Source: a bacterium (GTDB lineage Bacteria > Patescibacteriota > CPR2 > UBA1875 > CAIMLA01). Taken from it: a stretch of 64,000 nt of DNA. Numbering within the stretch: the stretch's first letter is position 1; each line of letters opens with the position of its first letter. The stretch is from contig JBAXUE010000002.1 in assembly GCA_037129835.1 (NCBI GenBank), positions 66,334 to 130,333 of the forward strand, in the 5' to 3' direction. Below, in pieces: positions 7,554 through 53,377 of this stretch. A program made the translations under genes and the position numbers. The notes under the pieces are model-generated. The model was not told the origin of the DNA. It worked only from the letters and a program-made list of their open reading frames with translations, and did not search any database.

Positions 7554-7613
7554 AATTCGTAATACGATTATAGCATAAAATAGCCTGTTGTGTCAACTTA
7601 TTTGCCTATAGCG

Positions 7614-18852: not shown

Positions 18853-18967
18853 AAATATATTTTATGCTATATATAGATAATAATGAAGAGAAATAAATAC
18901 AAATGGAGAAGGTCCGCGCCGGGAAGACGCTTTATATAGCTACCTTCTCGTTGCGGACCTCTTGGAC

Positions 18968-19342
18968 CTAGTCTTCGACCTCATCGATCCCGAGCATCGC
19001 TCTCGCGACTTCGATATCGGGTGCCAGGTCGAAGTTGTTGGTGTACTTCACCAACTTCTTAGAGACCTTCTCGTCCTCGGGGACTACGATCACAAACGGA
19101 ATGTGATCATTCATCAGGTACCGACCAAAGCTGTAGATACGGCCGATAGCCGCGCTACAAAGCTTGGTGACCATTGCGAGGTCGAGAATGACTCCGGCCT
19201 TGCGGGCCTTTATCAGAGTCTTGTCGAACTCGAGTCGGAGAACCGGCTCGACACTGTCGTCGAGATTTCCTCCGAGCTTCAGGATCACGGCCTTGTGGCC
19301 GTTACCTGCTTCGAACTTTTCGATACTGTGTACACAATGCAT
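18968..19342 (-). CDS. STAS domain protein (anti-sigma-factor antagonist SpoIIAA-like) in GC-rich module
   Basis: AVILKLGGNLD…GVILDLAMVTKLCSAAIGRI matches the STAS pattern v.l.G.LD…viDls.v.fiDSsGlg.l. Strong SD GAGGGGGA 4 nt upstream. Coding GC is visibly higher than in neighbouring genes. Confidence 0.55.
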   Translation of the reverse strand: MHCVHSIEKFEAGNGHKAVILKLGGNLDDSVEPVLRLEFDKTLIKARKAGVILDLAMVTKLCSAAIGRIYSFGRYLMNDHIPFVIVVPEDEKVSKKLVKYTNNFDLAPDIEVARAMLGIDEVED

Positions 19343-19351
19343 ATATCCCCC

Positions 19352-19666
19352 TCAGTCGGTTTCTAGTATTGCCGGGTTTTCGGAAAAGAACCATGAACCC
19401 CACAGCTCTCTCTTGACACCTACTTGCAGCGAATGTACCCACATTCCCCCTATGGGGATTTCGAAAGAGGGAAAGAAATCGAGTTCGATCTCTCCCTGCC
19501 AAACCACTTTCTCACGGTCAACGATATCGTAGATGACAAGTGAGTCACCGGTCTGGAGCAAGTGCAGGCCATCATAGCCGCCTTGCCTTCCTTCTTCTTC
19601 GAAGGCCCAGAAACCTCCTTCGGTTCCGGTCTCGAAGTAGAAATGTAACGTACCCACAAGTTTCAT
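19352..19666 (-). CDS. Hypothetical 105-aa protein (GC-rich), first gene of STAS two-gene module
   Basis: Start re-assigned to MKLVG, which has SD GGAGGTG 6 nt upstream. The longer ORF prefix overlaps repeat elements. No recognisable motif. Stop lies 9 nt before the STAS gene. Confidence 0.45.
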   Translation of the reverse strand: MKLVGTLHFYFETGTEGGFWAFEEEGRQGGYDGLHLLQTGDSLVIYDIVDREKVVWQGEIELDFFPSFEIPIGGMWVHSLQVGVKRELWGSWFFSENPAILETD

Positions 19667-19711
19667 GTGGCTCACCTCCCAAACGATGTTATCGTGATTG
19701 AGACAAAGAGG

Positions 19712-19740
19712 ATTATACAACATAATGAGTGTTCTGTAAA
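19712..19740 (-). promoter_or_regulatory. Near-consensus sigma-70-type promoter TTTACA-N17-TATAAT
   Basis: On the - strand: TTTACAgaacactcattatgttgTATAAT, positioned about 45 nt upstream of the 105-aa gene start. Confidence 0.5.
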
Positions 19741-19758
19741 GATAAACATATACTCCCC

Positions 19759-19863
19759 AGTCATCCATGGCCCGCTTTCGTCATCCTTGCGAACGCGAGG
19801 GTCTCTTTTGGCAACGTCATCCTGAGTCGAAACGAAGCTTGCCTGCGGTAAGCAGGGATCCAT
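19759..19863. repeat. Cluster of three GTCATCC-family repeat units (second terminus of the inverted pair)
   Basis: AGTCATCCATGG, CGTCATCCTTGCGAACGCGAGGGTCTC and CGTCATCCTGAGTCGAAACGAAGCTTGCCTGCGGTAAGCAGGGATCC. The last unit is 45/48 identical to the inverted copy at 16.06 kb. Confidence 0.65.
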
Positions 19864-21369: not shown

Positions 21370-22356
21370 TTATACCTCGCTAATTACGTCAAAGCCCTTG
21401 AAACTACCAGTTATGGCAAGGCCAATTATTTTGCCGTTTGTTAGGTGTTTTTCTCGCATTTTTCCAGCGATTTCATTAATAGTTGCGCCAGAACCGACGG
21501 CATCATCTATTATCAAGATATTTTTGTATTTACTGTTATCTTCTACCACGAATGTTTTTCTAGCATTTTCTATACGGTCCTCAAGTTTATTGAGAGTTTT
21601 CTGGGGTACTATCACTTGAGTTTTTATCTTTACGATACCTATCGTTCGAATGTGCAGATTTAGCTCTTTCTCCAGCTCTTTCATAAACTGAAGTTCACGT
21701 TTCACGGTAGGCTGAACAAAAGCCACCCCGTCTACATTCTTGTCATGTATCAGCTTCATAATCTGCGGTTTGATACTATCCACCAGATCATCGATGAGCT
21801 CCCTATTTTGGCTTTGTTTAGAATATAGTAGTAGTTGACCCAGGCGAGTTTTACCAAATCTTTCGATACTATAAAAATCGAGATAATATAGGTTGTCTAC
21901 ATTCACTTGTTCGAAACTAGTTCGAAGCTTGTCTATGCCAGATATCAAACCATTTTTTGTGTATTTCAGATACTTTTCGAGTGTTTTGATATACTCCACA
22001 GCTGTTTTTGTGATGTCTAGATGGTTTTTCTGAGTCCAGTATGCGAAACCCTCCCATCCAGTTTTCATTTCGCCAGCAGGCGTAATAATGAGGTAGTTTT
22101 TGTCTATAGTATTGATTATTTTTCTATCAACATTAAGACCGTCTAGGGTTTTGCCAGCCTCACCAGACTCACTTAGTGAATAATACACCTTGGGAGGCGT
22201 GCCACTCTTTACTAGGGCACCATTTTCTATCAGATTCTTGAGCTGTTTGTGAATAGCCTGTTCTGATATATCAAACTCAACAACCAATTCCTTGGGAGTT
22301 GCTTGTTTGTGTTCTGAGATGTATCTGATTATATTTTTTGAGGTATCTGTTTTCAT
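21370..22356 (-). CDS. Winged-helix DNA-binding domain fused to phosphoribosyltransferase (PRTase) domain; PurR-like architecture
   Basis: N-terminal wHTH (ELVVEFDISEQAIHKQLKNLIENG). C-terminal PRPP-binding loop ILIIDDAVGSGATINEIAGKM. Confidence 0.5.
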   Translation of the reverse strand: MKTDTSKNIIRYISEHKQATPKELVVEFDISEQAIHKQLKNLIENGALVKSGTPPKVYYSLSESGEAGKTLDGLNVDRKIINTIDKNYLIITPAGEMKTGWEGFAYWTQKNHLDITKTAVEYIKTLEKYLKYTKNGLISGIDKLRTSFEQVNVDNLYYLDFYSIERFGKTRLGQLLLYSKQSQNRELIDDLVDSIKPQIMKLIHDKNVDGVAFVQPTVKRELQFMKELEKELNLHIRTIGIVKIKTQVIVPQKTLNKLEDRIENARKTFVVEDNSKYKNILIIDDAVGSGATINEIAGKMREKHLTNGKIIGLAITGSFKGFDVISEV

Positions 22357-22431
22357 AGTAAGATTATATATGGTTTATGGTTTAGTGTCAACTATAAACT
22401 ATAAACTATTAATCAAATAATATTTCTGGTC

Positions 22432-22617
22432 TTATCGTATTACCCCTTCTCTTTTCTCGGCTTCTTCAAGGATTTCGTTGATTCCTCCATCAGATACGAG
22501 GAATTTGAAGGGCTGTATCAGCCTCTCGCCTTTTTTGGTGATGACTGTAGCAGTTTCATTCTTCATATTTACCTTTACTACTGTGACTTGGTTCTCAAAA
22601 TAATCAAATACTGTCAT
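22432..22617 (-). CDS. Hypothetical 61-aa protein, 8 nt downstream of DUF2130 gene
   Basis: Short ORF tightly coupled to the upstream gene. No motif. Confidence 0.3.
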   Translation of the reverse strand: MTVFDYFENQVTVVKVNMKNETATVITKKGERLIQPFKFLVSDGGINEILEEAEKREGVIR

Positions 22618-22625
22618 AATGCCCC

Positions 22626-24428
22626 TTACTTCTTATCGAGTATTTTTACATTTTTTTTAGCATAGTCAGCAGAGAGCATTTTGATCCCCGTATCTTTAAA
22701 AGAAACTCGAATTTCATCATCAGATATTCCCTCTACTTCGCCTATTCCGAAATCAGGATGACTGATAAGATCCCCAACTTCCAAGAAAGTTTCCGACTCT
22801 TCATCGATGTGTTCTACCACAGGTTCTTCGTCTGACCTATCTTCTACTCCTTTAGTATTTCCACTAAATATCGCTCGAAGTATTTTTTCTTCTGACGACT
22901 GAATAGCTTTTTCCTCTTCTACAGAAACAACTGTTTTTTCTACTTCTGTAACAGGTTTCTGGAAGTCATCTCCACCAGGAAGCTCTAGTGCCTTTATCTC
23001 AGGTAGGGCTATGTGACCACCAATATCACCATACATTCCTACAGTATTTGTGAGTACTCTGCTAAGCTGCTTTTCTCTCTCACACCATATCTTTTCGAAA
23101 GCGTTTCGCTCTTTGCGTATACCACTTTCCATAGCTCCAAAAGCCTCTACTATGGCCTCTACCCTTTGTTTAAACTCATTGCCCGTAAGGTATGTATATA
23201 GGTAGTCCATCTTGTCGTTCTTGTTGACTGCCAAGGCCTTCTCTCTATAGACATCCACCAGGCCTTTTCTCAGCACTGTAGCGAGTGCAATAGCATATTT
23301 TAACTCACATACCCAAATCTTTTCTATTTGTACGAATCCATGAGCATCTCCAGGCATAGCTGCTGTTACTATCACTCCGATATCTGCCTTTATAGCCCTC
23401 ATATCTTCTTTTAACTTATCTACCCAACCTGCACTCCAAGACTTGGTTTGCTTGGATTCCCAAGCTATTTTGCCACACAGAGCACCGGCTTTGTTTTGTA
23501 CTAGCTGTACCACATCAGCACCGTTTACACCCTTTGGTACTGGCGCGATAGCGTCAAAAGGAAAAGCGTCGGTTAGCACTTGTTCTAGCTCGAGCTCCTG
23601 AACTTCGCCTTGGGTTTGCATGGAGCCTTGCTCCAGCTTCCTAGCTAGATCGTCCTTTGCCCTGCTGACATTCGATAGCTTCATCTCTAGCTCAGCAATC
23701 TTTTTGTGCTGTTGCTCTTCGGCCTTTCTACCCGCTTCTTCTTGAATCTTCTGACGCTCCTCGTCTAGCTGTCTCATCTTCTCTAGCTCAAAGCTCTGCT
23801 TGTCTTCCTCTAGGGTAATCTTTTGCTTTCGAAGTTCCAGCTCTTTTTCCTGAGCTTTACGGAGCTTCTCGTCCTTTTCATTCATTTGCTCTTGGAAACT
23901 ACGTTTCTCTAGCTCCAGCTCTTTTTGAGTTTCGTCGGCTAGCTCTTTTTTGAGCTCTAGGCGATAGGCCTCAGTCTTCTCGGCGTATTTCTTCTCGACT
24001 TCGAGCTCTATCTTGATTTTTTCCTCTTCTAGCCTAGTCTTTTCTTTTCTGAGCTCTATTTCACTCTCTTGAGCTTTTTCGAGCTTTTCATTTTTTTCCA
24101 AAATTAACTGCTCAAAATTATGTTTTTCTAGCTCTAGCTCTTTTTTTGCCTCTATTGATAATTCTTTTTTGAGTTCTAGCCGATAATTTTCTATCTTTTC
24201 GGCATACTTTATCTCAGCCTCTAGTTCTATCTTGGTTTTCTCTTTTTCTATCTCAGATTCTCTGGTGGCCAGAAGCCTATTAGTCTGCTCTAGCTCATCT
24301 TTTAGCTTTTGCTGTTCACTACTTAGCTCTTTGCGAACCTTTAGTTCCATCTGCTCTTTTAGGATGTCGTCGATGTCTATATCCCAACCGCATTTTGGGC
24401 ACTTAATGTTTTGTTCTGAATCTGTCAT
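22626..24428 (-). CDS. DUF2130-like protein: N-terminal Zn-ribbon, long duplicated coiled coil, conserved C-terminal alpha/beta domain
   Basis: A CPKC…C start, then about 250 aa of E/K/L heptad-rich sequence containing two ~73-aa near-identical blocks. The C-terminal region (AIAPVPKGVNGADVVQ…IWVCELKYAIALA) resembles DUF2130. Confidence 0.5.
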   Translation of the reverse strand: MTDSEQNIKCPKCGWDIDIDDILKEQMELKVRKELSSEQQKLKDELEQTNRLLATRESEIEKEKTKIELEAEIKYAEKIENYRLELKKELSIEAKKELELEKHNFEQLILEKNEKLEKAQESEIELRKEKTRLEEEKIKIELEVEKKYAEKTEAYRLELKKELADETQKELELEKRSFQEQMNEKDEKLRKAQEKELELRKQKITLEEDKQSFELEKMRQLDEERQKIQEEAGRKAEEQQHKKIAELEMKLSNVSRAKDDLARKLEQGSMQTQGEVQELELEQVLTDAFPFDAIAPVPKGVNGADVVQLVQNKAGALCGKIAWESKQTKSWSAGWVDKLKEDMRAIKADIGVIVTAAMPGDAHGFVQIEKIWVCELKYAIALATVLRKGLVDVYREKALAVNKNDKMDYLYTYLTGNEFKQRVEAIVEAFGAMESGIRKERNAFEKIWCEREKQLSRVLTNTVGMYGDIGGHIALPEIKALELPGGDDFQKPVTEVEKTVVSVEEEKAIQSSEEKILRAIFSGNTKGVEDRSDEEPVVEHIDEESETFLEVGDLISHPDFGIGEVEGISDDEIRVSFKDTGIKMLSADYAKKNVKILDKK

Positions 24429-24514
24429 CTTATCTCCTTATTCTTTTTAGCATTTATTAATAGCTCCTGCATTATACACCCCAATAATGCCAAAAGTGCC
24501 CATTTACGAAAAAA

Positions 24515-24757
24515 TTAATCAAAAAGTATAAAAGGATTCATCTCCGCCGGTGTTTTCCAGCGTATTTTATACTTCTTCCTAAGTATTTCTTTTTTCTTAT
24601 GCCAAAAGGTATGGCAATATCCCAAATCACCTTCTTTGATTGGCGAATCTTTCAACGCATCCGTGACTTCATTATTGATTTTTGCGAAAATATCACGATA
24701 CCTCGGGTCTCGCTCTATTGGATCGTTAGCTATGTCGTCATCGTACATATTAATCAT
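24515..24757 (-). CDS. Hypothetical 80-aa protein
   Basis: ORF only. Basic C-terminus. Confidence 0.3.
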   Translation of the reverse strand: MINMYDDDIANDPIERDPRYRDIFAKINNEVTDALKDSPIKEGDLGYCHTFWHKKKEILRKKYKIRWKTPAEMNPFILFD

Positions 24758-24768
24758 CTTTGTTCTTC

Positions 24769-25110
24769 TTATTCCGGAGCTTGAATTGGCTTCGCTTCTC
24801 GTCTTTTCTTTATGTAGCTAACTAGGTTAATTATATCTACAACGAATGACCCAAGCAAAATCACTACGAAAAAGAATAGACCAAGTGCATAAGAGATGGC
24901 ATCACCCCAGGCCTGGTTTGGTAATGTGCGTATATAGGTTCCGAATAGAAAAAATCCGACGGCTACTACGACGCTAGTTATCTTTAGACCTATTGATAGA
25001 TCTCCGAGTTTTTTCCCGGTCTTGATATAGATAATGATCGAAGGTGCGACCATAGCCGCGATAGCAAGCAAGAGTATGAATAGCCCAGTAATTAGACCCA
25101 TAAGCACCAC
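24769..25110 (-). CDS. Hypothetical small membrane protein (3 TM)
   Basis: Three hydrophobic helices and a basic C-terminus. Confidence 0.4.
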   Translation of the reverse strand: MVLMGLITGLFILLLAIAAMVAPSIIIYIKTGKKLGDLSIGLKITSVVVAVGFFLFGTYIRTLPNQAWGDAISYALGLFFFVVILLGSFVVDIINLVSYIKKRREAKPIQAPE

Positions 25111-25146
25111 CCTCCAGACGCGATACGTAACGATTTTGTTATGATA

Positions 25147-26121
25147 TTACTTTTGTACATGTTCCTCTCCTTTTGCATGAATTATATTTTCCATATTATC
25201 ATACAGATAAACAAAATATTTTTCTATTTCATTCATTTTATTTGGTAACATATTTTTTGTAAGAGCTGCCGATTCTGCAAAAAACTCTTCGAAATATTCT
25301 GCATATTCAAGAATAAAGTCGTCAGTGAACTCTCCCTTAATTATACATTCATCATAGAGTGGTTTGATCGCCTTTACTCTGGTCTTTAGATATGGGGTAA
25401 AGGGATTATCTATTAGATATCCCATCCCTGGTGGGTTGTAATACATATTGCCTTCGTCATCTTTGATAAAGAAGAACTGTCCGAATTCGGTATTTGCTAG
25501 TATTCCTCGTTCTAGTTGAGCGCCAGTCCCGTTTTCTGTAGCGTAAAGATTTTTAAAATAAAAATGTCCGATTTCATGTGCAAGTAGATATTCGAGTAGC
25601 GCCTCTTCTTTGTTATCTGCTTCTTTTACTACATCTGGCATCTCGTATGGATAGTCATAGGTATCAAATAGCTTTATATCGCCAAAGTGCTCGCTTTCTC
25701 TGTCGGAAATGGCATGTGCCCGTACCCTCAACCACTCATCACCCTCAGGTAGCTCGTTGTTTGCTTTGGCTTTTTCGTATTCTTCCCTGTTATAAAGCTT
25801 CTTTTCATTCTCTATTCCTGGGGTGTAGACATACATTATTACATTATCATAGATTATTTTTGATATACCGACTTTTTTAAAATCCTCTAATTCGTAATTT
25901 CTCGCGATGAACTCCAAGGCGCTCTCTCCTAGATTCTTGTTTTCTTCAAATCCTTCGAAACCGAGATATGCTCGAAAATCATCTAGCTTCTCCTTTGATA
26001 TTTCATCATGAGTTTCCGTATAGACACTACTAGTAGGCGCACTTTCTTTAAGTTTTGTTCTTTCCCACAGCTTACTAGCCTCACGCTCAGCAGGTCCTAT
26101 TGGTAATGGTATATGTTCCAC
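25147..26121 (-). CDS. Hypothetical cytoplasmic protein with HExxH (AHEIGHF) zinc-binding motif
   Basis: HEIGH motif in the middle of an acidic 324-aa protein. No other recognisable domain. Confidence 0.4.
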   Translation of the reverse strand: MEHIPLPIGPAEREASKLWERTKLKESAPTSSVYTETHDEISKEKLDDFRAYLGFEGFEENKNLGESALEFIARNYELEDFKKVGISKIIYDNVIMYVYTPGIENEKKLYNREEYEKAKANNELPEGDEWLRVRAHAISDRESEHFGDIKLFDTYDYPYEMPDVVKEADNKEEALLEYLLAHEIGHFYFKNLYATENGTGAQLERGILANTEFGQFFFIKDDEGNMYYNPPGMGYLIDNPFTPYLKTRVKAIKPLYDECIIKGEFTDDFILEYAEYFEEFFAESAALTKNMLPNKMNEIEKYFVYLYDNMENIIHAKGEEHVQK

Positions 26122-26140
26122 TATTATCCTTTCTTTGTAT

Positions 26141-26812
26141 TTATTTCTCTTTCGTCACCAAGAACGGAAAAACTCTGTTCATTTCATCGTTCCGAAGGAT
26201 AAATGCCGCCTCGAGGAAAGTATACAGTAAATCTTTTGTATTTTTCAGTACATCAGCACTACAAAAGACGACGAAATCAGCTTCGTTTATCTCTGAGGGC
26301 GATTGGATGTGGATCTTGTTTCTCAAGTTCTTGAGCTGTTTCAAATCATTTCGATAAAAGGCAAATGACAGCCCGAATGTCTGCTCCTGCGCAGACTTAT
26401 AGAGTAAGCTCTTAAAATCATGGATATCGTCATAGCTGGCACCTGTTTCTTTGTGCTGGATATACAGAATAGACTCTATTATTAGTGCCGATATCAGAAC
26501 AAATGTCTTCACATTCTGCCCATAGAGAGAGCTGGTGAGATATAGCTGCTTGGTGCATTCGTCTAGATAGTGAAGATATTGGAGATTATAGGCGATGTTA
26601 CTAAAAGCAGCATACTTTGGGTCATCATCAGAAAATTCGTAATCTATCAGCCGTGGGAATATAGTACTGCGATAGAAATCTATTGAGTTTGGCAGAAACT
26701 TGTTCGAACCCTCCTCTTTGGAACAAACCCGACACAAGATATTAGGCTTGTCTGGATTGTACAAGTCCTGCTTTACAAAGCCTGAATTGCTGTGTTGTTC
26801 TGTTTTAGTCAT
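26141..26812 (-). CDS. Hypothetical protein at the edge of defense island (N-terminal CxxC)
   Basis: 223-aa ORF with an N-terminal CRVC pair. Helical C-terminus. Confidence 0.4.
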   Translation of the reverse strand: MTKTEQHSNSGFVKQDLYNPDKPNILCRVCSKEEGSNKFLPNSIDFYRSTIFPRLIDYEFSDDDPKYAAFSNIAYNLQYLHYLDECTKQLYLTSSLYGQNVKTFVLISALIIESILYIQHKETGASYDDIHDFKSLLYKSAQEQTFGLSFAFYRNDLKQLKNLRNKIHIQSPSEINEADFVVFCSADVLKNTKDLLYTFLEAAFILRNDEMNRVFPFLVTKEK

Positions 26813-26873
26813 TTTTCCCTTTTATAAAAGAATACATTGTTCTATCTTACTTTGTAAAAAATTATTAACTAAA

Positions 26874-28229
26874 CTAGTCTCTGCCACCCCTTTGTCTATT
26901 ACAATATCGGTGGACTAATCTGGCGTTTGATAGCTTGGTTTCTCCACCTCGCCAGTAAAACTCAATATGATCAACCTCAGAATCGTCTAAAACACGTATT
27001 TTTTGACCACATATTTTACAGGTTGAATCAGTGTCAAAAAGTTGCTTTTTCTCGTCGTGTGAATAGTTTCTTGTCTGTGACTTGGAATAATCTACGATTT
27101 TCCTCAAAGATTCTAGCCATTTCTCAAATCTGTATTGCACATTTTCTGGCTTATCTGTTGATGACTTCAAGGAATCTTCAAATTTCTTGACAGCTGTCAT
27201 TAAGTGTAAAAGTTCTTCGCGAATAGAATCAAGGTGAGGGATAATTTCGTTTTTTTGATACATCGTGAAACCCCACATTACGATGTCAAATAAGCCTTTG
27301 TTTATTTTTGTATTTTCCCACTTTCCGTTTGAGTCAGATTCTTCGCCTACAACAAACCTACGAAAAGCATTGTCACCAAATACTGAGCGAGTTAGGTCAA
27401 CAGATTTTTTAAAAACCTCACGAAGTTCTTTTGCTTTTTCTTCATTTAGATTTTGGTTATTATGCATTTCTTGATTTAGAAACTGTCTCATGGGTGCTTT
27501 GTATTTTAAGTATGAGTTATTATAAAAAGCGAAAAATCGTAATAAAAGCTCTCTATCAATCATTCTTATGGACATAGCTGGTGATTTTAATAATGTTTGA
27601 TATTCTTTATTTTCGGCAAGCTCGATTAGTAAGTCGTTATATTTTCCACGGTAAATACAGTTTCTGAGTTCCTGGTCGTTCAGCTTCACTGCGCCAGTAT
27701 TTAGTCTTTCGAAAACCTCAAATCTAACATTGATATCAGAATCCTTTTTGATTCTGATAAATGGTATAAGATAAGAATCAACTTTTCGCTGTGTTATTTT
27801 GTCTAGTTCCTTAAATGATTTCCTGTTTAGTCCTGTCAAAACCTTTAATCCCGAAAGGGCAAATTTTTCGTGCTTGTCTTGAAAGTACCCGTCCTTAAAA
27901 GAAAAGATAGAAATTAGTCTTTGTTGCCCGTCTATTACTGATTGGGTACCGTCATCTTCTTCGGCAGTGTATATTACTGGTATCGGGACTCCCAAGAGAA
28001 TAGATTCTATCAGTCTACTAGCTTTGCTTTTATCCCAGACATATCCTCTTTGAAAGTATGGTCTTACATCAAGTTCCCCTGCCTTGTAATCAGAATATAA
28101 GTCTTTTATGGCTCTACTGGGGTTGTCAAAGGTAATTCTTCTTTCATCCTCAGGTATATCAAAAACCAGTGGTTCGTTGTCATTATTGTCTTCTTCAAGA
28201 ATAACGTCATTATTATCTATTACCGTCAT
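26874..28229 (-). CDS. GmrSD-like type IV restriction protein: DUF262 (ParB-like NTPase/nuclease) N-domain + HNH/DUF1524 C-domain
   Basis: VIDGQQRLISIF is the DUF262 hallmark. The C-terminus CKICGQ…DHIEFYWRGGETKLSNARLVHRYCN is an HNH motif. Confidence 0.8.
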   Translation of the reverse strand: MTVIDNNDVILEEDNNDNEPLVFDIPEDERRITFDNPSRAIKDLYSDYKAGELDVRPYFQRGYVWDKSKASRLIESILLGVPIPVIYTAEEDDGTQSVIDGQQRLISIFSFKDGYFQDKHEKFALSGLKVLTGLNRKSFKELDKITQRKVDSYLIPFIRIKKDSDINVRFEVFERLNTGAVKLNDQELRNCIYRGKYNDLLIELAENKEYQTLLKSPAMSIRMIDRELLLRFFAFYNNSYLKYKAPMRQFLNQEMHNNQNLNEEKAKELREVFKKSVDLTRSVFGDNAFRRFVVGEESDSNGKWENTKINKGLFDIVMWGFTMYQKNEIIPHLDSIREELLHLMTAVKKFEDSLKSSTDKPENVQYRFEKWLESLRKIVDYSKSQTRNYSHDEKKQLFDTDSTCKICGQKIRVLDDSEVDHIEFYWRGGETKLSNARLVHRYCNRQRGGRD

Positions 28230-33018: not shown

Positions 33019-33241
33019 AGCTCTCCAAATTTAATATATATTATATTCTACTCTCCTTTTGTGCTTATCGCAAGCATAAATTCGGTTTGACGGCTCTAGG
33101 CATCGGATATTGACAACTAAAATACGCGGAGTATAATTATTCATGAAGAGAGCAGTAATGCCTATGTAACGCCGAGTGGAGGCACCTCGATAGAGGGCCC
33201 GTGAAGCGAGGAGCACGAGTATATAGGTCACCTCTTCTTTT

Positions 33242-46043: not shown

Positions 46044-46168
46044 ATTATTCTTCCCTTATTATCAAATATTACCTCAGTTAGTTGTTGTAAACAACCTTAG
46101 TTTACAAAAGTTCGGAGCCCAAGATCGGGCCCCATTAGGGTGCCGTCCATGGGCTCATATTGTTCTAC

Positions 46169-46492
46169 TTACTTCTTCTCGAAGGCTGGTGGTTTTACCC
46201 ACACACCTCTTTTGCGAAGTAGCTTATAGAAACCTTTTAGGATATCTTGGTATTCCGACTCTACAGTCGAAATGTTGAGCTGTTGCCAAGCCTCCTTTAG
46301 TTCTCGATACGAGATGTTGCTCGCTAGTGACTTCCACTGGTCTTGAGCCCCAAAGTAGAAGATATAGCTACTAGGGCCGCATCGCTTTCCGGTGATGTGT
46401 ATCACTATTTCTCGACGACGATTCGACTTGCATAAATAGACTTTGACACAGTTGTGTCGAAAGCATCTGCCGATAAAGCCAAGCTTACTCAC
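46169..46492 (-). CDS. Hypothetical ~107-aa Cys/His-rich protein in GC-rich island (probable GTG start)
   Basis: SD GAGAGGAGGA lies 6 nt before the GTG (VSKLGFIGRCFRHNCVKVYLCKSNRRR…). GC-rich coding sequence unlike its surroundings. Confidence 0.4.
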   Translation of the reverse strand: MSKLGFIGRCFRHNCVKVYLCKSNRRREIVIHITGKRCGPSSYIFYFGAQDQWKSLASNISYRELKEAWQQLNISTVESEYQDILKGFYKLLRKRGVWVKPPAFEKK

Positions 46493-46533
46493 GATGGGTC
46501 CTCCTCTCACTAGGGGCAGATTGTGCGACTACT

Positions 46534-46650
46534 CTAGCTGCGGTGCTTCTTCTTCCCTTTTCTTGGGTGAGCAGCAGTTACGGCCTTGCCACAACCTCTG
46601 GCGCAACATTTCCTGCAACGCCGCAGATCCTTTTCGTTACAGATTCGCAT
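46534..46650 (-). CDS. Candidate 38-aa Cys-rich basic peptide (MRICNEKDLRRCRKCCARGCGKAVTAAHPRKGKKKHRS)
   Basis: Strong SD GGGGGGAG 5 nt before the ATG. The longer annotated ORF prefix is AT-rich and probably non-coding. Confidence 0.35.
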   Translation of the reverse strand: MRICNEKDLRRCRKCCARGCGKAVTAAHPRKGKKKHRS

Positions 46651-47066
46651 GCTCGCTCCCCCCGATAGTAATGGATACCAGACTAGGTGATAATATACTA
46701 AAATATTTGTCAGAGCAAGGTAAATCTGCTCAAAATTAATTAATAATTGTAAATATATTTTGTAATATGCGGCCATTTTCTTTGCATAAAGCCACAAAGG
46801 TTCTCTCAGCTTTTGCTCAGATTTGATGTATACAATATAGATGTCATTTAAACAAGGAAGGAGATGAATGACAAAACCTGGCGAGTAGTGATCGCCGCTA
46901 TCAAGACTTGGCGCCACTGGAGGACACGAATTTCACAAAGAGTTGGTGCTAGTGTGTCGCAAAAGTCGGATAGCAAATACAGTTCAGGGCTAGAAGTACA
47001 TATTCTCAGCTCGGGCAGGGTCACGAAAACCACCACAACTAAATATATATTTTTCATTCCACTCAA

Positions 47067-47099
47067 AATAATAGAGGCCATCCCCCGGCCTCTATTATT
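47067..47099. terminator. Perfect 13-bp stem-loop AATAATAGAGGCC-atccccc-GGCCTCTATTATT, probable intrinsic terminator
   Basis: Verified stem and 7-nt loop. T-rich flanks on both strands. Confidence 0.5.
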
Positions 47100-47269
47100 A
47101 TTAATATCAATAATGCAAAAAGCCATCGTTTGGGAACGATAGCTTCCATAGGCATTCCTCTCTGTTGTTGGAATAATAGATGGTTTGCTGTTTGGTCGAA
47201 GTCCTCTGCGATATTACTCGCTCTCTCACCTACTGGTGAGACCCATGGGCTCCATTGTTGCGGTGTTGA

Positions 47270-47512
47270 CTAGCTTGGGAATTTGATTCGCTTGCCAATT
47301 TTTTCGGCTCTTACTGCCTTAAGGAATTCTTCGGGTTCTATCCCAAAGTGCTCCGAGAGCCAGTTTTGAACCTCACAGAGGGCGTAGTTGCGTTCCCACA
47401 ACGTATCTCCTCTAAAGGACTGTGAAGCCAAAGCGATAACCTCCGCTCTGCTAAAACTGTCATAACCGTCTTTGTTGGTACTGTTACTCCCTTTCTTCAT
47501 GATTGTCTCCAA
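47270..47512 (-). CDS. Hypothetical 80-aa protein (GC-rich island)
   Basis: ORF with acidic/aromatic composition. No motif. Confidence 0.35.
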   Translation of the reverse strand: METIMKKGSNSTNKDGYDSFSRAEVIALASQSFRGDTLWERNYALCEVQNWLSEHFGIEPEEFLKAVRAEKIGKRIKFPS

Positions 47513-47630
47513 TCGCTAAACGCTGGTTTGATCCAACGCTGTCGTCTTATGAACGACAAGAACTGATAGGACTTAACACAAACGATATTATAGTCATTTA
47601 ACGGGGTTTTGTCAATAAGCATCAATAATA

Positions 47631-48556: not shown

Positions 48557-49711
48557 TTATTCCTCCCTCAGTGATTTAACAATACTGATTTTCACCGCAT
48601 AGTAAGCGGGGTAAATACCCGCAATTACGCCGATGGCGAGCGAGAATATCATTGAACCGATAAGTAACCTAGGAGTGAGTAAAAATATCTTGTCCCCAGT
48701 CTGCTCCATATAATAGTTCACTAAATATACAATAACAGCTCCAAGGGCTATCCCGATGGCGCCACCAAAAAATCCGATAACGCCAGCTTCTGTAAGATAT
48801 TCGAGTAATATATTGCGGTTTTTTGCCCCTAGAGCTTTCTTTATCCCTATTTCCTTAGTTCTTTCTGAAATTGACATCGTCATGGTATTGACTATTGATA
48901 GCGTGCCAACAAGAAGTGAGATGATACAAATTCCGTAAATAATTGAGTTAAAAGTTTGCATTGTAGATGCTATTTGGTCTTGAAATTGTTTCGGTCCAAG
49001 AGTATCAACGCCTTTGACCTCTTTCTTTATTTTTTCTGATAATTTATTTGGGTCTACACCTTTTTTAGGATAGGCAATAAAGCCATAAACCAGATCGTCT
49101 GGTTTCGTAGTATTTCTAAGTAATTCGGGTAATTCATTGTACATTATTTCTCTACCATCATGTAAAGAGACGGATATTTGAGTATCAGGTAGAGTGAAAG
49201 TTTTTTCGGCAATGCCAACAACTTCAAAATTTTTACCTCTAATTTTGATATTTTCTCCCACCTTGGCTTTTAGTTTTTTTACTAGGTCTGCGCCGACCAA
49301 TGCCTTGTTACGGTCTGAAGCAGTAATAGCTCGCCCACTAGTAAGTCTAATTTTAAAGCTTTCGTAATCGTTGGATTTTTCGTCAATGCTAATAATGTTT
49401 GCTAGTGGTCCAAGACTAGCAGTGATGTTATCACTAAGTAGTGAATAAGTTTCGGCCGCTACATATGCGACGCCATCGACTTTTTCTATTTCTTTTTTCT
49501 TATCAATCTTTAATGGGCTACTATATGTACTTATTTTGGCAGATATTTCTACTTTGTCCTTATAATATTCTGCCCCTCCATCTACAAGCAAACTCAGTTT
49601 CTCGGCGATAGCTCCCATAACCACAAGGGCCAGGATACCGATGGCGATACCAAAAACCGTCAGTAGTGTTCTGGTTTTTCGTCTCCACATATTTTTTAAG
49701 ATTTCAAACAT
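48557..49711 (-). CDS. ABC transporter permease of the FtsX/MacB/LolC family
   Basis: N-terminal TM helix, large extracytoplasmic domain, and a C-terminal 3-TM FtsX domain (…LGAKNRNILLEYLTEAGVIGFFGG…). Confidence 0.8.
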   Translation of the reverse strand: MFEILKNMWRRKTRTLLTVFGIAIGILALVVMGAIAEKLSLLVDGGAEYYKDKVEISAKISTYSSPLKIDKKKEIEKVDGVAYVAAETYSLLSDNITASLGPLANIISIDEKSNDYESFKIRLTSGRAITASDRNKALVGADLVKKLKAKVGENIKIRGKNFEVVGIAEKTFTLPDTQISVSLHDGREIMYNELPELLRNTTKPDDLVYGFIAYPKKGVDPNKLSEKIKKEVKGVDTLGPKQFQDQIASTMQTFNSIIYGICIISLLVGTLSIVNTMTMSISERTKEIGIKKALGAKNRNILLEYLTEAGVIGFFGGAIGIALGAVIVYLVNYYMEQTGDKIFLLTPRLLIGSMIFSLAIGVIAGIYPAYYAVKISIVKSLREE

Positions 49712-49761
49712 TTAATTCCTTATGATTATGAAAATATTTTAACATAATTATGAATGATAAA

Positions 49762-49816
49762 TAATAAAAAGAAAAGGCCCGCACTAGGGTAGGTGTGAAC
49801 CTTCTCTTTGCGGGCC
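49762..49816 (-). terminator. Intrinsic terminator (GGCCCGCA…TGCGGGCC 8-bp stem + TTTTCTTTTTATT) for GC-rich three-gene module
   Basis: Stem 49776-49783 pairs with 49809-49816. The U-tract on the - strand lies immediately 3' of the stem. Confidence 0.55.
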
Positions 49817-49828
49817 GTTGTGTCTTGT

Positions 49829-50191
49829 TTAGAACAGGGAGGGCTGGTCTTTCCCAGCAGCATCAGACGTATCTGATACTTGCAGTTTGTCGATAGGTCC
49901 CTTTGGAAACCTCTCGACAAACTCCTCGAGATTACTGTCTTGCACCAACCAGCTCTGTTCTATCTTGCGATTGAACTTCCTACTCAGTGCATTGCTGATG
50001 ATGTGTGAGAAGTTCACAGTAGTAGTGAACTCCCGGGGACGAGCGTGCCACGCGTCGTGTTGCTTCTGCGTGACATAGATACCGACACTCAAGCCGGCGA
50101 CCTTGAATACCCCGATGTAGGGGCAATTGGGTCTGGTGACCTTCATTTTTGTTACATCTGTAGTGCTAGTGCGTTTGGCCAAGCCAAACAC
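49829..50191 (-). CDS. Hypothetical 120-aa protein (GC-rich island B)
   Basis: ORF with 5-nt gap to the upstream gene. No motif. Confidence 0.4.
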   Translation of the reverse strand: MFGLAKRTSTTDVTKMKVTRPNCPYIGVFKVAGLSVGIYVTQKQHDAWHARPREFTTTVNFSHIISNALSRKFNRKIEQSWLVQDSNLEEFVERFPKGPIDKLQVSDTSDAAGKDQPSLF

Positions 50192-50196
50192 CCCCT

Positions 50197-50550
50197 TCAG
50201 TTTAGTGAGATGTACAGGTCGGTTCTTGCTCTTTCAGGTTCGTGCCGGGCTGCCATAAAGAGTAAAACAATCGCTCTTCTGCTGGCCAAAACCAGTGTTT
50301 CAGGATCTTTGGTTGTTGGGCCGAAGCAACCGCTTTCGATGTACTCGATCTGATCGCCGATAATCTCAGCAATCGTGATCATGTCATCGGGCACTTGATA
50401 ATGTGCCGCGAAGTTTAGTACCGCCTCTCTTTGGACAGAAGCCGTTAACAGTACAGTAATACTGAGTTCAGGCTCGAGACCTAGATCTTCACAGCGTTGA
50501 ACTAGCATGTCTTGGACTGCCCCAAGTATTAGTGTGCTTAAAGCCGCCAT
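50197..50550 (-). CDS. Hypothetical ~118-aa protein (GC-rich island B); start re-assigned to MAALSTLILG
   Basis: SD GAGGGG lies 8 nt before the internal ATG. The longer annotated prefix would cover the promoter. Confidence 0.4.
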   Translation of the reverse strand: MAALSTLILGAVQDMLVQRCEDLGLEPELSITVLLTASVQREAVLNFAAHYQVPDDMITIAEIIGDQIEYIESGCFGPTTKDPETLVLASRRAIVLLFMAARHEPERARTDLYISLN

Positions 50551-50598
50551 TGACAATCCCCTCGTTTCTAGACGAATTGTGTAGGTACAATGTAAATT

Positions 50599-50627
50599 AC
50601 TATACCACTTTATGGTATATTTGTAAA
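50599..50627 (-). promoter_or_regulatory. Sigma-70-type promoter TTTACA-N17-TATAGT with ATACCAtaaagTGGTAT palindrome in spacer
   Basis: On the - strand: TTTACAaatataccataaagtggTATAGT. The 6-bp inverted repeat in the spacer is a candidate operator. Confidence 0.5.
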
Positions 50628-50635
50628 GCATGATT

Positions 50636-50667
50636 TACGCAAAAAACAGCCCTAAGTCGGGGCTGTT
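50636..50667 (-). terminator. Intrinsic terminator AACAGCCC-taagtcg-GGGCTGTT + TTTTTTGCG
   Basis: Verified 8-bp stem, and a T6 tract on the - strand directly after it. It terminates the 115-aa gene upstream. Confidence 0.6.
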
Positions 50668-50842
50668 TGTAATAAATTGCAGGTTGAGCCGCACTGTAGG
50701 GTAACAGTAGTGCGCGGCTTTGCCCATAGGCGAATCCTCTCTCATGAAGGGTTGTGGTATCTTACTTGAGTTATTGAGATTGACCTAATCCCAGAATCAA
50801 ACTGTTTCCAGTTACCCTTGATTCTGAGTGCAGAGTTTTGGG

Positions 50843-51190
50843 TTATCTTTTTTGGAAGAAGACTTTGCGACCAAGGTCCTGTGGTTTACAAACGGCCCAG
50901 AAAAGACTAAGTCCCATCTCGGATAAACCAAGAAGGTCATCTAGTAATTCTGGGTTATTCCATCGAACCTCTTTGCCGGCATACTTCTTGAGTAGTTCGT
51001 CGACGTCCCTGATATTTTGGTCTCTTTCGATTTCACGCCGTTGTTCTTCAAGGTCTACTAAGACCTCAATGTGATACCCATTACGCTGCAGAGCTTGTAA
51101 AAGAGCTAATTGAGTCATAAAGACTCCCTTCGTTTGACAGCACTTCGCAATATTGCGGAGTAACTGCATCATCACGTTGCCGCGACTCAT
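50843..51190 (-). CDS. Hypothetical 115-aa protein (GC-rich island B)
   Basis: ORF with charged helical composition. No motif. Confidence 0.4.
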   Translation of the reverse strand: MSRGNVMMQLLRNIAKCCQTKGVFMTQLALLQALQRNGYHIEVLVDLEEQRREIERDQNIRDVDELLKKYAGKEVRWNNPELLDDLLGLSEMGLSLFWAVCKPQDLGRKVFFQKR

Positions 51191-51268
51191 GTGCGGTATT
51201 ATACTCTTTTTTACCTATATGTCAAGATAATTTACTGTTACAAGTTTTTGTTATAGGAATAGGTTGCT

Positions 51269-53377
51269 TTAGTTGAATTTAACTTCTGCGACCTTTGAGA
51301 TATCGCTAAGTTTATGACCCTGAATCATCGAATCCGAAATTGTGTACAAAATGTCACCAATATATAAAATTCTAGATATTGTACTGTTGGCTGCATAGTC
51401 GTAAGAATAATTATTTTTTGAGTTTTCGTTAGTTGTTTTGTGTGTGATGCGATCGCGGAACTGGAATCCTTTTTCTAAGTCCACTTTGTAAACATAGGCT
51501 CCTTGGAAAGTATCCGTACCATATGTATTTGCCTCTGCCCCAGTACTCGCCTTTTGTTCTGGTGTTAGCTCGGCAAGAGATATTGGTAACGATAATAGGC
51601 TTTTTGCTTTATCAAACAGAAACGCCTTTGGGTCTGTAAGGACTGGTGAATCAGTCCCTCGGTCACCTATTACCGTCTTGAACATTTCTTTTGGATTGGT
51701 AACATCTGTAACATCAAATATAGCCATCTTTACGCCCTGGTACCAAGCGAAGTCCAAATTTCTGCTTTCGATCGCTTCGGTGGAGGCGTCGATAGCTTCT
51801 TTTCCGATGCCGATAATGTGGTTTTCGTCATATGGATGTAAATAGTCAGAGTATCCCGGTATCTTTAGGTATCCAAGAACAGCGGGTTTCTCGGGATCCT
51901 TAAGGTCAATAACATAAAAAGGATCTACTTTTTTGAAAGTGACAAGGTACCCTCTATCTCCCATAAATCTGGCGGAATATATCTCTTCTCCTGGCGCAAG
52001 ATCTTCTAGGGCGCCAACTTGTTTCATGTCACCATTAAAAACATAAATATTATTTGTCGATTTATTGACTGTATCAGTAATACTTCCCTTGGTAGCGGCT
52101 ACTCTAAAAAATCCATTGCTCTCGTCCATAGAATATTGATTAAGCGCACTACCCTCTATCGAAGCCGAACTAAGATATTCAGAATTGTTACCTACTAGTT
52201 TAAATTTGTGGAACTGTGTTTTTGAGACAGTGTTCCTGGTATAGTTTGTATAAATTGGTTGTTCAAGACTGGCAAGATACAGGTTTTGGCTGGATGCATA
52301 TACAATGTCTGAATTTCCGATAATTGTCCGTCTATTGATTTCCTTGGTTTCGTCTTTGATCGATAGACTCACAACACTTACAAAGGTGTTATTGGTCTTA
52401 TCTTCTATATTATTAACGTTTTTGAAATATTCCACATCGGCACAGCCACAAGTGGGTTTATAAACTGCTTTGGCAGAACCTTGAACATCAGAATATTTAG
52501 GAAGTAGAGATAGGGCATCTGTTTGGGGTGTAATGACATTATAATTTGGATATGTATTAAGAACTAAGTGAACATTGTCACCAATCATTCTGCCAGCACT
52601 ATAATTACCTTCATACTCAACACTTCTAGTGAGTTTTGGGTTTGTCTTATTGCTAGTATCCCAGATTTTGATAAAAGTATAGGTGGTAGAGGGATTATAG
52701 GGTTTTGTAAACCTTTCGATAATACTATTATTTGTAGAGGTCTCTTTTGTAACTGTTTTATTGCCGATGGCTAATAACCTATTTTTCGCGATAAATAATT
52801 GACTAACATTTCCATAATCGCTACCCGTATATTCTTCAGGCATTATAGAGGAAGGGCTAGCATCGGTATTGTTACTTTCTACTACCTTGATTGTTTTTAC
52901 AAGTTTGGCATCTTCGGCGGGATAAGCTTTAACGATGTCAATGTTACCTTGCCTGACAGTATAGATATATTCACCATCATTCTTAACAGTATCAGCTTCG
53001 TCAACTCCCTCAACTTGCACATTCGTTTTAGAATAATCACTACTACCTCCTGTAGTATCTGCGGTAGTGGCTTCACCGGCCTCTATACTCATGCCAAGCG
53101 GGGCATTAACGCCTATGTTTTTTGTTTGTACATCTCTTGCGAGCATTTTAGTAATATCTCCGCAGGATTTTGCAGTTCCAATGTACGTATTATTAACTTT
53201 GATAGCGCTTTTCGATGTATTTCTTACGCGATAATACCAGCCCAAGGCGATAATTGAAAATAAGAATATAATTGCTATAGATCCAAAGAAAATTTTCATA
53301 AAGACAGGGCTTTTGTAAAAATTATTTTTTATAGAGTCCTTTTTTGTTATATCCATATCATCTCCTTTAATATACAT
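51269..53377 (-). CDS. Secreted/membrane-anchored beta-propeller domain protein (Beta_propel-like)
   Basis: N-terminal TM/signal anchor. C-terminal region …YVFNGDMKQVGALEDLAPGEEIYSARFMGDRGYLVTFKKVDPFYVIDLKDPEKP… resembles the archaeal/Firmicutes beta-propeller family. Confidence 0.5.
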   Translation of the reverse strand: MYIKGDDMDITKKDSIKNNFYKSPVFMKIFFGSIAIIFLFSIIALGWYYRVRNTSKSAIKVNNTYIGTAKSCGDITKMLARDVQTKNIGVNAPLGMSIEAGEATTADTTGGSSDYSKTNVQVEGVDEADTVKNDGEYIYTVRQGNIDIVKAYPAEDAKLVKTIKVVESNNTDASPSSIMPEEYTGSDYGNVSQLFIAKNRLLAIGNKTVTKETSTNNSIIERFTKPYNPSTTYTFIKIWDTSNKTNPKLTRSVEYEGNYSAGRMIGDNVHLVLNTYPNYNVITPQTDALSLLPKYSDVQGSAKAVYKPTCGCADVEYFKNVNNIEDKTNNTFVSVVSLSIKDETKEINRRTIIGNSDIVYASSQNLYLASLEQPIYTNYTRNTVSKTQFHKFKLVGNNSEYLSSASIEGSALNQYSMDESNGFFRVAATKGSITDTVNKSTNNIYVFNGDMKQVGALEDLAPGEEIYSARFMGDRGYLVTFKKVDPFYVIDLKDPEKPAVLGYLKIPGYSDYLHPYDENHIIGIGKEAIDASTEAIESRNLDFAWYQGVKMAIFDVTDVTNPKEMFKTVIGDRGTDSPVLTDPKAFLFDKAKSLLSLPISLAELTPEQKASTGAEANTYGTDTFQGAYVYKVDLEKGFQFRDRITHKTTNENSKNNYSYDYAANSTISRILYIGDILYTISDSMIQGHKLSDISKVAEVKFN

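Follow-up and report, generated by a model that had tools for sequence, protein, structure and literature searches.

What are the three small genes A, B and C that lie on the minus strand between a beta-propeller gene (stop codon at 51269) and a MacB-type permease gene (start at 49711), and what might they do for the bacterium that carries them? They occupy an island of ~1.5 kb (49766-51225) in the 64-kb window, the whole stretch of DNA analysed here, and are arranged in two promoter-to-terminator units, with promoter P1 preceding gene A and terminator T1, and promoter P2 preceding genes B and C and terminator T2. The answer proposed, tentatively and with somewhat less than an even chance of being right, is that this is an acquired and recombining accessory island whose protein C would dock on the sliding clamp, modulating replication or repair. 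The features of the locus, in the direction of transcription, are:

51226..51421, minus strand: hypervariable block 2, the last ~51 beta-propeller codons and the intergenic DNA up to the -35 hexamer of P1
51198..51225, minus strand: promoter P1, a perfect sigma-70 consensus (TTGACA-16-TATAAT) upstream of gene A
51119..51191, minus strand: 5' leader of gene A, which would instead be its first 24 codons on a near-leaderless mRNA if the start lies at 51190
50843-51118, minus strand: gene A, 91 amino acids (alternatively 50843-51190, 115 amino acids)
50641..50833, minus strand: candidate structured RNA of 193 nucleotides (nt), ending in T1
50641..50668, minus strand: terminator T1, a 9-bp stem AAACAGCCC-N7-GGGCUGUUU followed by a U-rich stretch, -13.3 kcal/mol
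50599..50627, minus strand: promoter P2, TTTACA-17-TATAGT with a TG extended -10 element
50601-50619: palindrome TATACCA-N5-TGGTATA inside P2
50197-50550, minus strand: gene B, 117 amino acids, ATG start after GAGGGG, product predicted to be all-helical
50173..50189, minus strand: hairpin GUUUGGC-UUG-GCCAAAC, a perfect 7-bp palindrome whose loop contains the gene C start codon TTG
49829-50182, minus strand: gene C, 117 amino acids from a TTG start (or to 50191, 120 amino acids from a GTG start)
49823..50041, minus strand: hypervariable block 1, gene C codons 48-117 and a few bases past the stop codon
49832..49846, minus strand: candidate beta-clamp-binding motif Q-P-S-L-F, the last five codons of gene C
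49766..49816, minus strand: terminator T2, a long-loop hairpin GGCCCGCA...UGCGGGCC followed by the U tract UUUUCUUUUU

The initial annotation of this DNA described three GC-rich open reading frames (ORFs) on the minus strand, a promoter TTTACA-N17-TATAGT and two intrinsic terminators. All of these are present: gene A with 115 or, likelier, 91 codons, gene B with 117 and gene C with 117 or 120, the promoter at 50627..50599 and the terminators with folding energies of -13.3 and -21.6 kcal/mol. What had been missed are promoter P1, the clamp-type C-terminus of gene C and the highly conserved non-coding DNA that separates gene A from T1. The compositional analysis agrees that the island is GC-rich, to a modest extent. 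Its GC content is 0.457, compared to 0.391 ± 0.030 in windows of the same size, which places it in the top 1.4%, and comparable values are reached in one other region of the window only (~17.8-19.3 kb). At third codon positions (GC3) genes A, B and C reach 0.40, 0.46 and 0.61, respectively, compared to 0.32-0.39 in the neighbouring genes. The enrichment is thus real but modest, and the cassette counts as compositionally foreign. Judged by its sequence the window is bacterial chromosome, with TopA, DprA, Der, Pth, ScpAB and a D-Ala-D-Ala carboxypeptidase among its genes; the immediate neighbours of the island are the MacB/ABC transporter, the beta-propeller protein, a GNAT acetyltransferase and TopA. 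Among 185,579 species representatives, the MacB permease has its closest relatives in metagenome-assembled genomes (MAGs) of Candidatus Saccharibacteria and Patescibacteria (58-65% identity). The three closest MAGs keep the MacB/ABC pair without genes A, B and C and without the beta-propeller neighbour, so that the comparison of presence and absence proposed with the initial annotation found an island that is missing beside its neighbours rather than housekeeping factors conserved throughout the lineage.

The island was compared with contigs of the same metagenomic population (L001-L009 and L011) and with one divergent copy (L010). By this comparison A, B and C are real genes, since L010 keeps their lengths (91, 117 and 117 amino acids) and in each the proportion of nonsynonymous differences (pN) is below that of synonymous differences (pS); the annotated frames are also the longest open frames in L010. 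The proteins share 59% (A; pN 0.24, pS 0.41), 47% (B; synonymous sites saturated, pN below pS) and 76% (C; pN 0.13, pS 0.36) amino acid identity with their L010 counterparts. In five of the population contigs (L001-L004 and L008) nearly all differences from the window fall into two sharply bounded blocks; the adjoining 2 kb on the downstream side and 450 bp on the upstream side show no difference between these contigs. Block 1 contains ~55 substitutions in 219 bp (pS 0.55, pN 0.16), and the C-terminal half of gene C that it covers occurs as three roughly equidistant alleles with ~20-25% nucleotide difference and a pN/pS of ~0.3, which indicates that these alleles are imports from diverged lineages under purifying selection and not products of hypermutation. 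Block 2 (pS 0.44, pN 0.05) carries the signature of recombination with a diverged lineage. Synonymous divergence from L010 likewise changes from one segment to the next, from 0.22 in the N-terminal half of gene C to 0.41 in gene A and >0.8 in gene B, and the L010 flank past T2 is unrelated to the window. Recombination certainly shapes the locus, and this strain-level mosaic shows that it is active in a natural population; it is also the main caveat on any functional reading of the conservation of the RNA element described below. A diversity-generating retroelement acting on gene C was considered and rejected, as the substitutions are of all types and not adenine-specific and pN/pS is ~0.3; no reverse transcriptase was found among the genes examined.

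The evidence on which the proposed role turns lies in gene C. An AF2 (AlphaFold2) model built from a six-sequence alignment has a predicted local distance difference test score (pLDDT) >88 in the core (residues ~18-95) and <50 in residues 1-15 and 98-116, and protein C is modelled as a small folded alpha/beta core with a disordered acidic tail. An exhaustive HMMER profile search of 1.84 billion representatives with the gene C profile retrieved three small true homologues: P0006, P0008 (full ORF L016:167-505) and P0009. A fourth match, P0007, a 1658-residue sequence of ~120-aa repeats that reached an E-value of 3e-14 through seven short stretches, looks like a translated artefact of repetitive DNA. 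All full-length members of the family end in Q-x-[S/T]-L-F, their tails being otherwise unalignable: DQPSLF in the window, DQQTLF and GQQTLF in the other alleles, EQLSLF in L016 and GQGSLF in P0009. The terminal motif is thus invariant in its anchor positions among homologues that are just 28-45% identical, and gene C is the sole ORF of at least 60 codons in the six frames of the window with such an ending. The beta-clamp-binding consensus is QL[S/D]LF, of which positions 1, 4 and 5 are reported to be the most important (PMC3919608); QLSLF is the form found in Hda and PolC. Such motifs typically occur at protein termini, and the toxin SocB is among their users (PMC9690074). The gene C family fits the consensus at positions 1, 4 and 5, has S or T at position 3 and includes one member with exact QLSLF. 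A disordered acidic tail that ends in a conserved motif is strong evidence for a docking peptide, and DnaN is its putative partner because the motif matches the clamp-binding consensus. Within the hypervariable half of gene C, the codons for EFTTTVNF also contain a hairpin (50011-50031, AGTTCAC-N7-GTGAACT) with perfect 7-bp arms that are kept in the three alleles around a variable loop; it may be due to chance or be a structural element of the mRNA.

The surroundings of the homologues differ from those in the window. In L014, the full-length homologue P0009 stands alone, without a gene B homologue, in a GC-rich patch (0.51 vs ~0.40) flanked by an HD-domain gene and rplC. It has a promoter-like site to itself and a G+C-rich hairpin, read from the sequence, just past its stop codon. 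L015 encodes P0006, also without gene B, and in L016 a partial upstream ORF weakly resembles the C-terminus of protein B (pairwise E 0.0095). Gene C is, by this distribution, the island's portable core, with gene B as a non-obligate companion, because the homologues in L014 and L015 occur without it. Directly past the gene C terminator, both L010 (1420-1450) and L016 (560-590) carry a consensus promoter (TTGACA-17-TATAAT) that points onward; both contigs end soon after it. Together, these sequences suggest that gene C cassettes occur as chains of small autonomous units. Adjoining P0009 and divergent from it, the minus strand of L014 (2995-3338) bears a GC-rich unit of ~340 nt that has a TTGATT-17-TATAAT site at one end, a 13-bp terminator hairpin at the other and no ORF longer than 31 codons on that strand. 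It folds at -130 kcal/mol (z -4.2), includes a strong Shine-Dalgarno box followed by an eight-codon mini-ORF (MKRISLSA), has no Rfam match and is unlike the RNA element of the window. More widely, at 84-4944 of L014, which derives from another small-genome bacterium, the S10 and L3 genes lie ~3.9 kb apart, an unusual interruption of the S10 operon, and the insert holds a GC-rich zinc-ribbon ORF, a phosphoribosyl pyrophosphate (PRPP) synthetase, the HD-domain protein and the gene C homologue.

The second conserved feature of the island is non-coding. For gene A the 91-aa start is the likelier, because its ATG at 51118 is preceded, at a distance of 6 nt, by the Shine-Dalgarno sequence AAGGGAG. 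The part of its leader region that is covered by L010 (51176-51101) is 100% identical to L010, compared to 73% for the gene A coding sequence, and the fold of the leader is unexceptional (z -1.8). Downstream of gene A, the 193-nt stretch that ends in T1 is ~95% identical to L010 (~9 differences), whereas gene A and gene B show 73% and 51% nucleotide identity, respectively. Counted per 30 nt, identical bases number 30 in the leader (51160-51101), 17-27 in the gene A coding sequence, 26-30 between the gene A stop codon and T1 (50832-50654) and 5-24 in the gene B coding sequence. The contrast with synonymous sites is also marked, the neighbouring genes differing from L010 by 22-82% at these. A 210-nt stretch containing the element (50636-50845) has a minimum free energy of -61 kcal/mol (z = -3.6), and the sole substitution within a predicted helix changes G-C to G-U. 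Rfam yielded no match to the element at the gathering threshold, the best E-value matches in the island being spurious snoRNA and leader models far below it. The element is most simply the 3' untranslated region (3'UTR) of gene A, or a small RNA (sRNA) processed from it and sharing T1, since no promoter-like site occurs within it. A ToxIN-like type III toxin-antitoxin system was also considered and rejected, as there are no tandem or direct repeats in 49700-51300.

The transcription signals delimit both units. Perfect TTGACA-N16-18-TATAAT sites occur five times in the 64-kb window (7567-7596, 22363-22391, 33110-33137, 47587-47615 and 51198-51225), against 0.05 expected by chance, and at least four of the five lie directly 5' of ORF starts (three were checked against the ORF list). 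This excess makes P1 credible and argues that the organism uses canonical promoters. In the strain comparison hypervariable block 2 ends at 51226, directly before the -35 hexamer of P1. The hexamers of P2 are kept in L010, and P2-type hexamers with the same spacing (TTTACA-17-TATAGT) are also found 5' of the gene C homologue in L015. In L010, T1 keeps its stem and differs in its loop. T2, whose fold of -21.6 kcal/mol has a z-score of -3.4, is kept as well, the homology to L010 stopping just past it. The idea that AGGGUA of the RNA element forms a kissing interaction with UACCCU of the T2 loop was rejected, as this loop is altered in L010 without a compensating change. Genes B and C are 14 nt apart between the single promoter P2 and the single terminator T2. 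The hairpin that holds the gene C start codon in its loop lies ~8 nt past the gene B stop codon and is 100% conserved in L010, which suggests a translational-coupling device from B to C. An antisense ORF of 102 codons on the plus strand (50045-50353) is broken in L010 and was discarded.

Taken together, the preferred reading is that the island would have been acquired horizontally and remain strain-variable in a Saccharibacteria-like (Patescibacteria) chromosome. P1 would transcribe gene A and then the ~190-nt RNA element, predicted to be structured, as far as T1, and P2 would transcribe genes B and C, whose translation is probably coupled by the start-codon hairpin. Protein C would dock on the beta sliding clamp through its C-terminal Q-x-S/T-L-F, which would either tether its N-terminal domain to replisomes or let it compete with polymerases and repair factors; the cassette would thereby modulate DNA replication or repair. 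A bolder extension, in which the C proteins form a new Patescibacteria family of small, horizontally mobile clamp-docking effectors that control or sabotage replication together with B and a structured RNA, is improbable on present evidence; if true, the island would represent a previously undescribed clamp-targeting addiction or replication-control module. Patescibacteria are host-dependent bacteria with tiny genomes, and to our knowledge almost nothing has been learned of their accessory genes and of the regulation of their replication. A mobile clamp-docking family would offer a concrete entry point, easy to test, into their replication control or genetic-element conflict, and the RNA element would add an unclassified candidate from a lineage with poorly catalogued non-coding RNAs. 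Should clamp binding fail, the region would be a well-annotated orphan island.

Several points weigh against this reading. Clamp binding is read from a motif of five residues, of which position 2 is not the consensus L but P, Q or G in most members, and P0006 of L015 ends before the tail. The core model of protein C has no structural neighbour, and hence gives no functional clue. Genes A and B are limited to one metagenomic population and L010, leaving their roles unconstrained. The RNA element shows no covariation among the three near-identical sequences available, and a covariance model of it (R1), run with filters off, detected it nowhere else in the window and nowhere in the loci that carry gene C homologues. 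Its conservation could, moreover, stem from recent recombination, in an island so mosaic that pS varies from 0 to >0.8 between segments.

The last of these points leads to the alternative that survives best, although it is still rather unlikely: the 193-nt stretch would not be a functional RNA at all but would either owe its near-identity with L010 to a recent recombination tract, the locus being mosaic, or encode a ~30-aa peptide. Jumps in pS of this size between adjacent segments, together with the lack of covariation and of homologues in other loci, would fit this alternative, and a possible ORF of ~30 codons (MGKAAHYCYPTVRLNLQFIT...) can be read in the element behind a Shine-Dalgarno-like box (GAGAGAGGA). 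However, the small ORF has its frame shifted by a 1-nt insertion in L010, and a strain single-nucleotide polymorphism at 50739 weakens the box. Conservation also follows functional boundaries, from just past the gene A stop codon to the terminator, and the element diverges less from L010 than do the synonymous sites of any segment compared. A z-score of -3.6 marks the fold as significantly stable, and the substitutions either replace G-C by G-U or fall where the centre of the element is less structured. A candidate structured 3'UTR or derived sRNA remains part of the preferred reading.

It is less probable still, though by no means negligible, that the C-terminal Q-x-S/T-L-F docks a partner other than the clamp or signals degradation, through a protease adaptor or in an SSB-like manner, and that the island is unrelated to replication. 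Several systems make use of short hydrophobic motifs that end a protein behind an acidic tail, and the prevalence of P, Q or G instead of L at position 2 would fit such a partner. Against this stand the invariance of positions 1, 4 and 5 and the member with exact QLSLF, and docking on DnaN is kept as the preferred, if putative, function of the tail.

Genes B and C could also constitute a type II toxin-antitoxin pair of the SocAB type, in which C would be a clamp-occupying toxin, B its antitoxin or adaptor, and P2 autoregulated through the palindrome. A neighbouring pair of small, equally long genes, separated by 14 nt and placed behind one promoter with dyad symmetry, would suit this reading, as would the clamp-motif tail of C, for which SocB provides the precedent of a clamp-binding toxin (PMC9690074). 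The island is strain-variable, its core being unchanged between the two recombination tracts; the C homologue of L015, a contig without B, stops short of the tail, and L016 has its weak B-like ORF upstream of the C homologue (pairwise E 0.0095). Yet no match to a toxin or antitoxin family was obtained in Pfam, NCBIfam, PADLOC or PHROGs, the model of C has no structural neighbour, and L014 has a full-length C homologue without B. Within the population, B changes by at most one residue alongside two C alleles, and against L010 it retains 47% amino acid identity where the N-terminal half of C is ~85% conserved, which gives no sign of co-evolution. What B shares with L010 includes the core DDxxTIAEIIGDQIxYIExGCFG; its single-sequence AF2 model is all-helical with a pLDDT of 51, a confidence too low for use. 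Of the structure predictions proposed with the initial annotation, that of the C core was thus confident but without a fold neighbour, and that of B too poor. B and C are not paralogues, a relationship ruled out by hhalign.

The palindrome adds little to this pairing. It is present within P2, in whose spacer the initial annotation had placed it, but the operator role then suggested for it is not supported. Perfect palindromes with 6-bp arms occur at 5.2 per kb in the window, so that the one in P2 is not beyond chance. Its right arm coincides with the extended -10 element, and three of the six bases in its left arm are changed in L010 without compensation, leaving it half conserved. The palindrome is not significant and cannot bear an argument for autoregulation. 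The likeness to a toxin-antitoxin or phage-derived cassette proposed on first inspection accordingly stands for the architecture, and is not borne out for the defining homology, the obligate pairing and the operator. A toxin-antitoxin reading of B and C is not supported and is considered quite unlikely.

The database searches bear on the origin of the island as well as on its products. None of the three proteins has a family match in Pfam, PHROGs, NCBIfam, PADLOC or the PDB sequences, with no PHROGs match below E 0.02, and no helix-turn-helix (HTH) domain was detected in the island proteins. No DNA or protein similarity was found in 50,697 phage records and 72,556 plasmids. The early statement that no protein is assignable has thus withstood the family, PDB and phage/plasmid searches of A, B and C, all of which were empty. 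Six scans of IMG/VR with protein and RNA-element patterns returned no relative of A, B, C or the RNA element, and gene C has no relative in the GTDB species representatives. A scan of the JGI metagenomes with gene C recovered known contigs only, and a word-indexed search of 5.8 billion proteins returned the same population only for each of A, B and C. Integration of an element through att repeats or at a tRNA target was considered and rejected, since there are no flanking direct repeats and no tRNA. No integrase lies nearby, and the 64-kb window contains no tRNA, no tmRNA and no Rfam family at the gathering threshold. That the island is the remnant of a phage or plasmid regulatory cassette with repressor and operator, as initially proposed, is very improbable, for its moron-like design, with own promoters and terminators and deviant GC, and the onward consensus promoter past the gene C terminator in L010 and L016 are set against the absence of similarity in phage records, plasmids and IMG/VR, of any PHROGs match below E 0.02, of an HTH domain and of an integrase, att repeats or tRNA nearby, and against flanking genes that are chromosomal (MacB/ABC, beta-propeller, TopA).

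Elsewhere in the window, several further regions share some features with this locus. The other GC-rich island, presumably the 'island A' of the initial annotation, lies on the minus strand at 18960-19770 and reaches a GC content of 0.52. It encodes orphan ORFs of 124 and 138 codons (GC3 0.70 and 0.53) without a Pfam match, and a TTTACA-17-TATAAT site at 19740..19712 falls inside the 138-aa ORF as listed. Kinship of gene C with the proteins of this 18.9-19.8 kb island was ruled out by hhalign. A second stretch, at 46100-47615 on the minus strand, starts with a perfect TTGACA-17-TATAAT site (47615..47587), followed by an orphan ORF of 80 codons (47512-47270) and then by ~1.1 kb of GC 0.44 with weak, overlapping ORFs that lack a Pfam match. 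It ends at a 9-bp terminator hairpin (46134..46113), and the strain differences of L003 in this stretch cluster at 47652-47282 and 47068-47013. It may represent a further autonomous unit or else a long non-coding RNA. From position 3.4 kb up to the window's end, every gene-like long ORF is on the minus strand. A third region (21370-28229) is a defence-type gene cluster with interspersed orphan ORFs, which includes:

21370-22356: a protein with HTH and PRTase-CE domains
22626-24428: a DUF2130 protein with a CarD/tudor-like C-terminus
26874-28229: a GmrSD-N + HNH type IV restriction enzyme

Among known systems, protein C most resembles the beta-clamp-binding proteins (Hda, PolC/DnaE, Pol II and SocB) in its invariant Q1 and L4-F5 and in a motif that ends a disordered tail, where clamp-binding motifs are usually located. 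Unlike these partners of the clamp, it is tiny (117 aa), has a novel core without sequence or fold similarity to them, and its family usually has a residue other than L at position 2. The operon of B and C recalls SocAB of Caulobacter crescentus, also a small two-gene operon of which one product putatively targets the clamp through its motif (PMC9690074). It differs from SocAB in having no detectable homology to it, and in the occurrence of partnerless gene C homologues in L014 and L015. With respect to the RNA element, the parallel is with 3'UTR-derived sRNAs and structured mRNA 3' ends, in that a conserved and stable segment of ~190 nt runs from the stop codon to an intrinsic terminator without a promoter of its own, whereas the known 3'UTR-derived sRNAs differ from the window element, which is without Rfam family and without covariation. 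Phage 'morons' are autonomous promoter-gene-terminator inserts of deviant base composition. Each unit of the island similarly has a strong sigma-70 promoter, an intrinsic terminator and deviant GC, and the homologue in L014 is a single-gene insert of the same kind; unlike morons, the island is situated in a chromosome between housekeeping-type genes, outside any prophage and without phage relatives. The island is best described as a variation on clamp-motif proteins and moron-like autonomous units rather than as a categorically new system.

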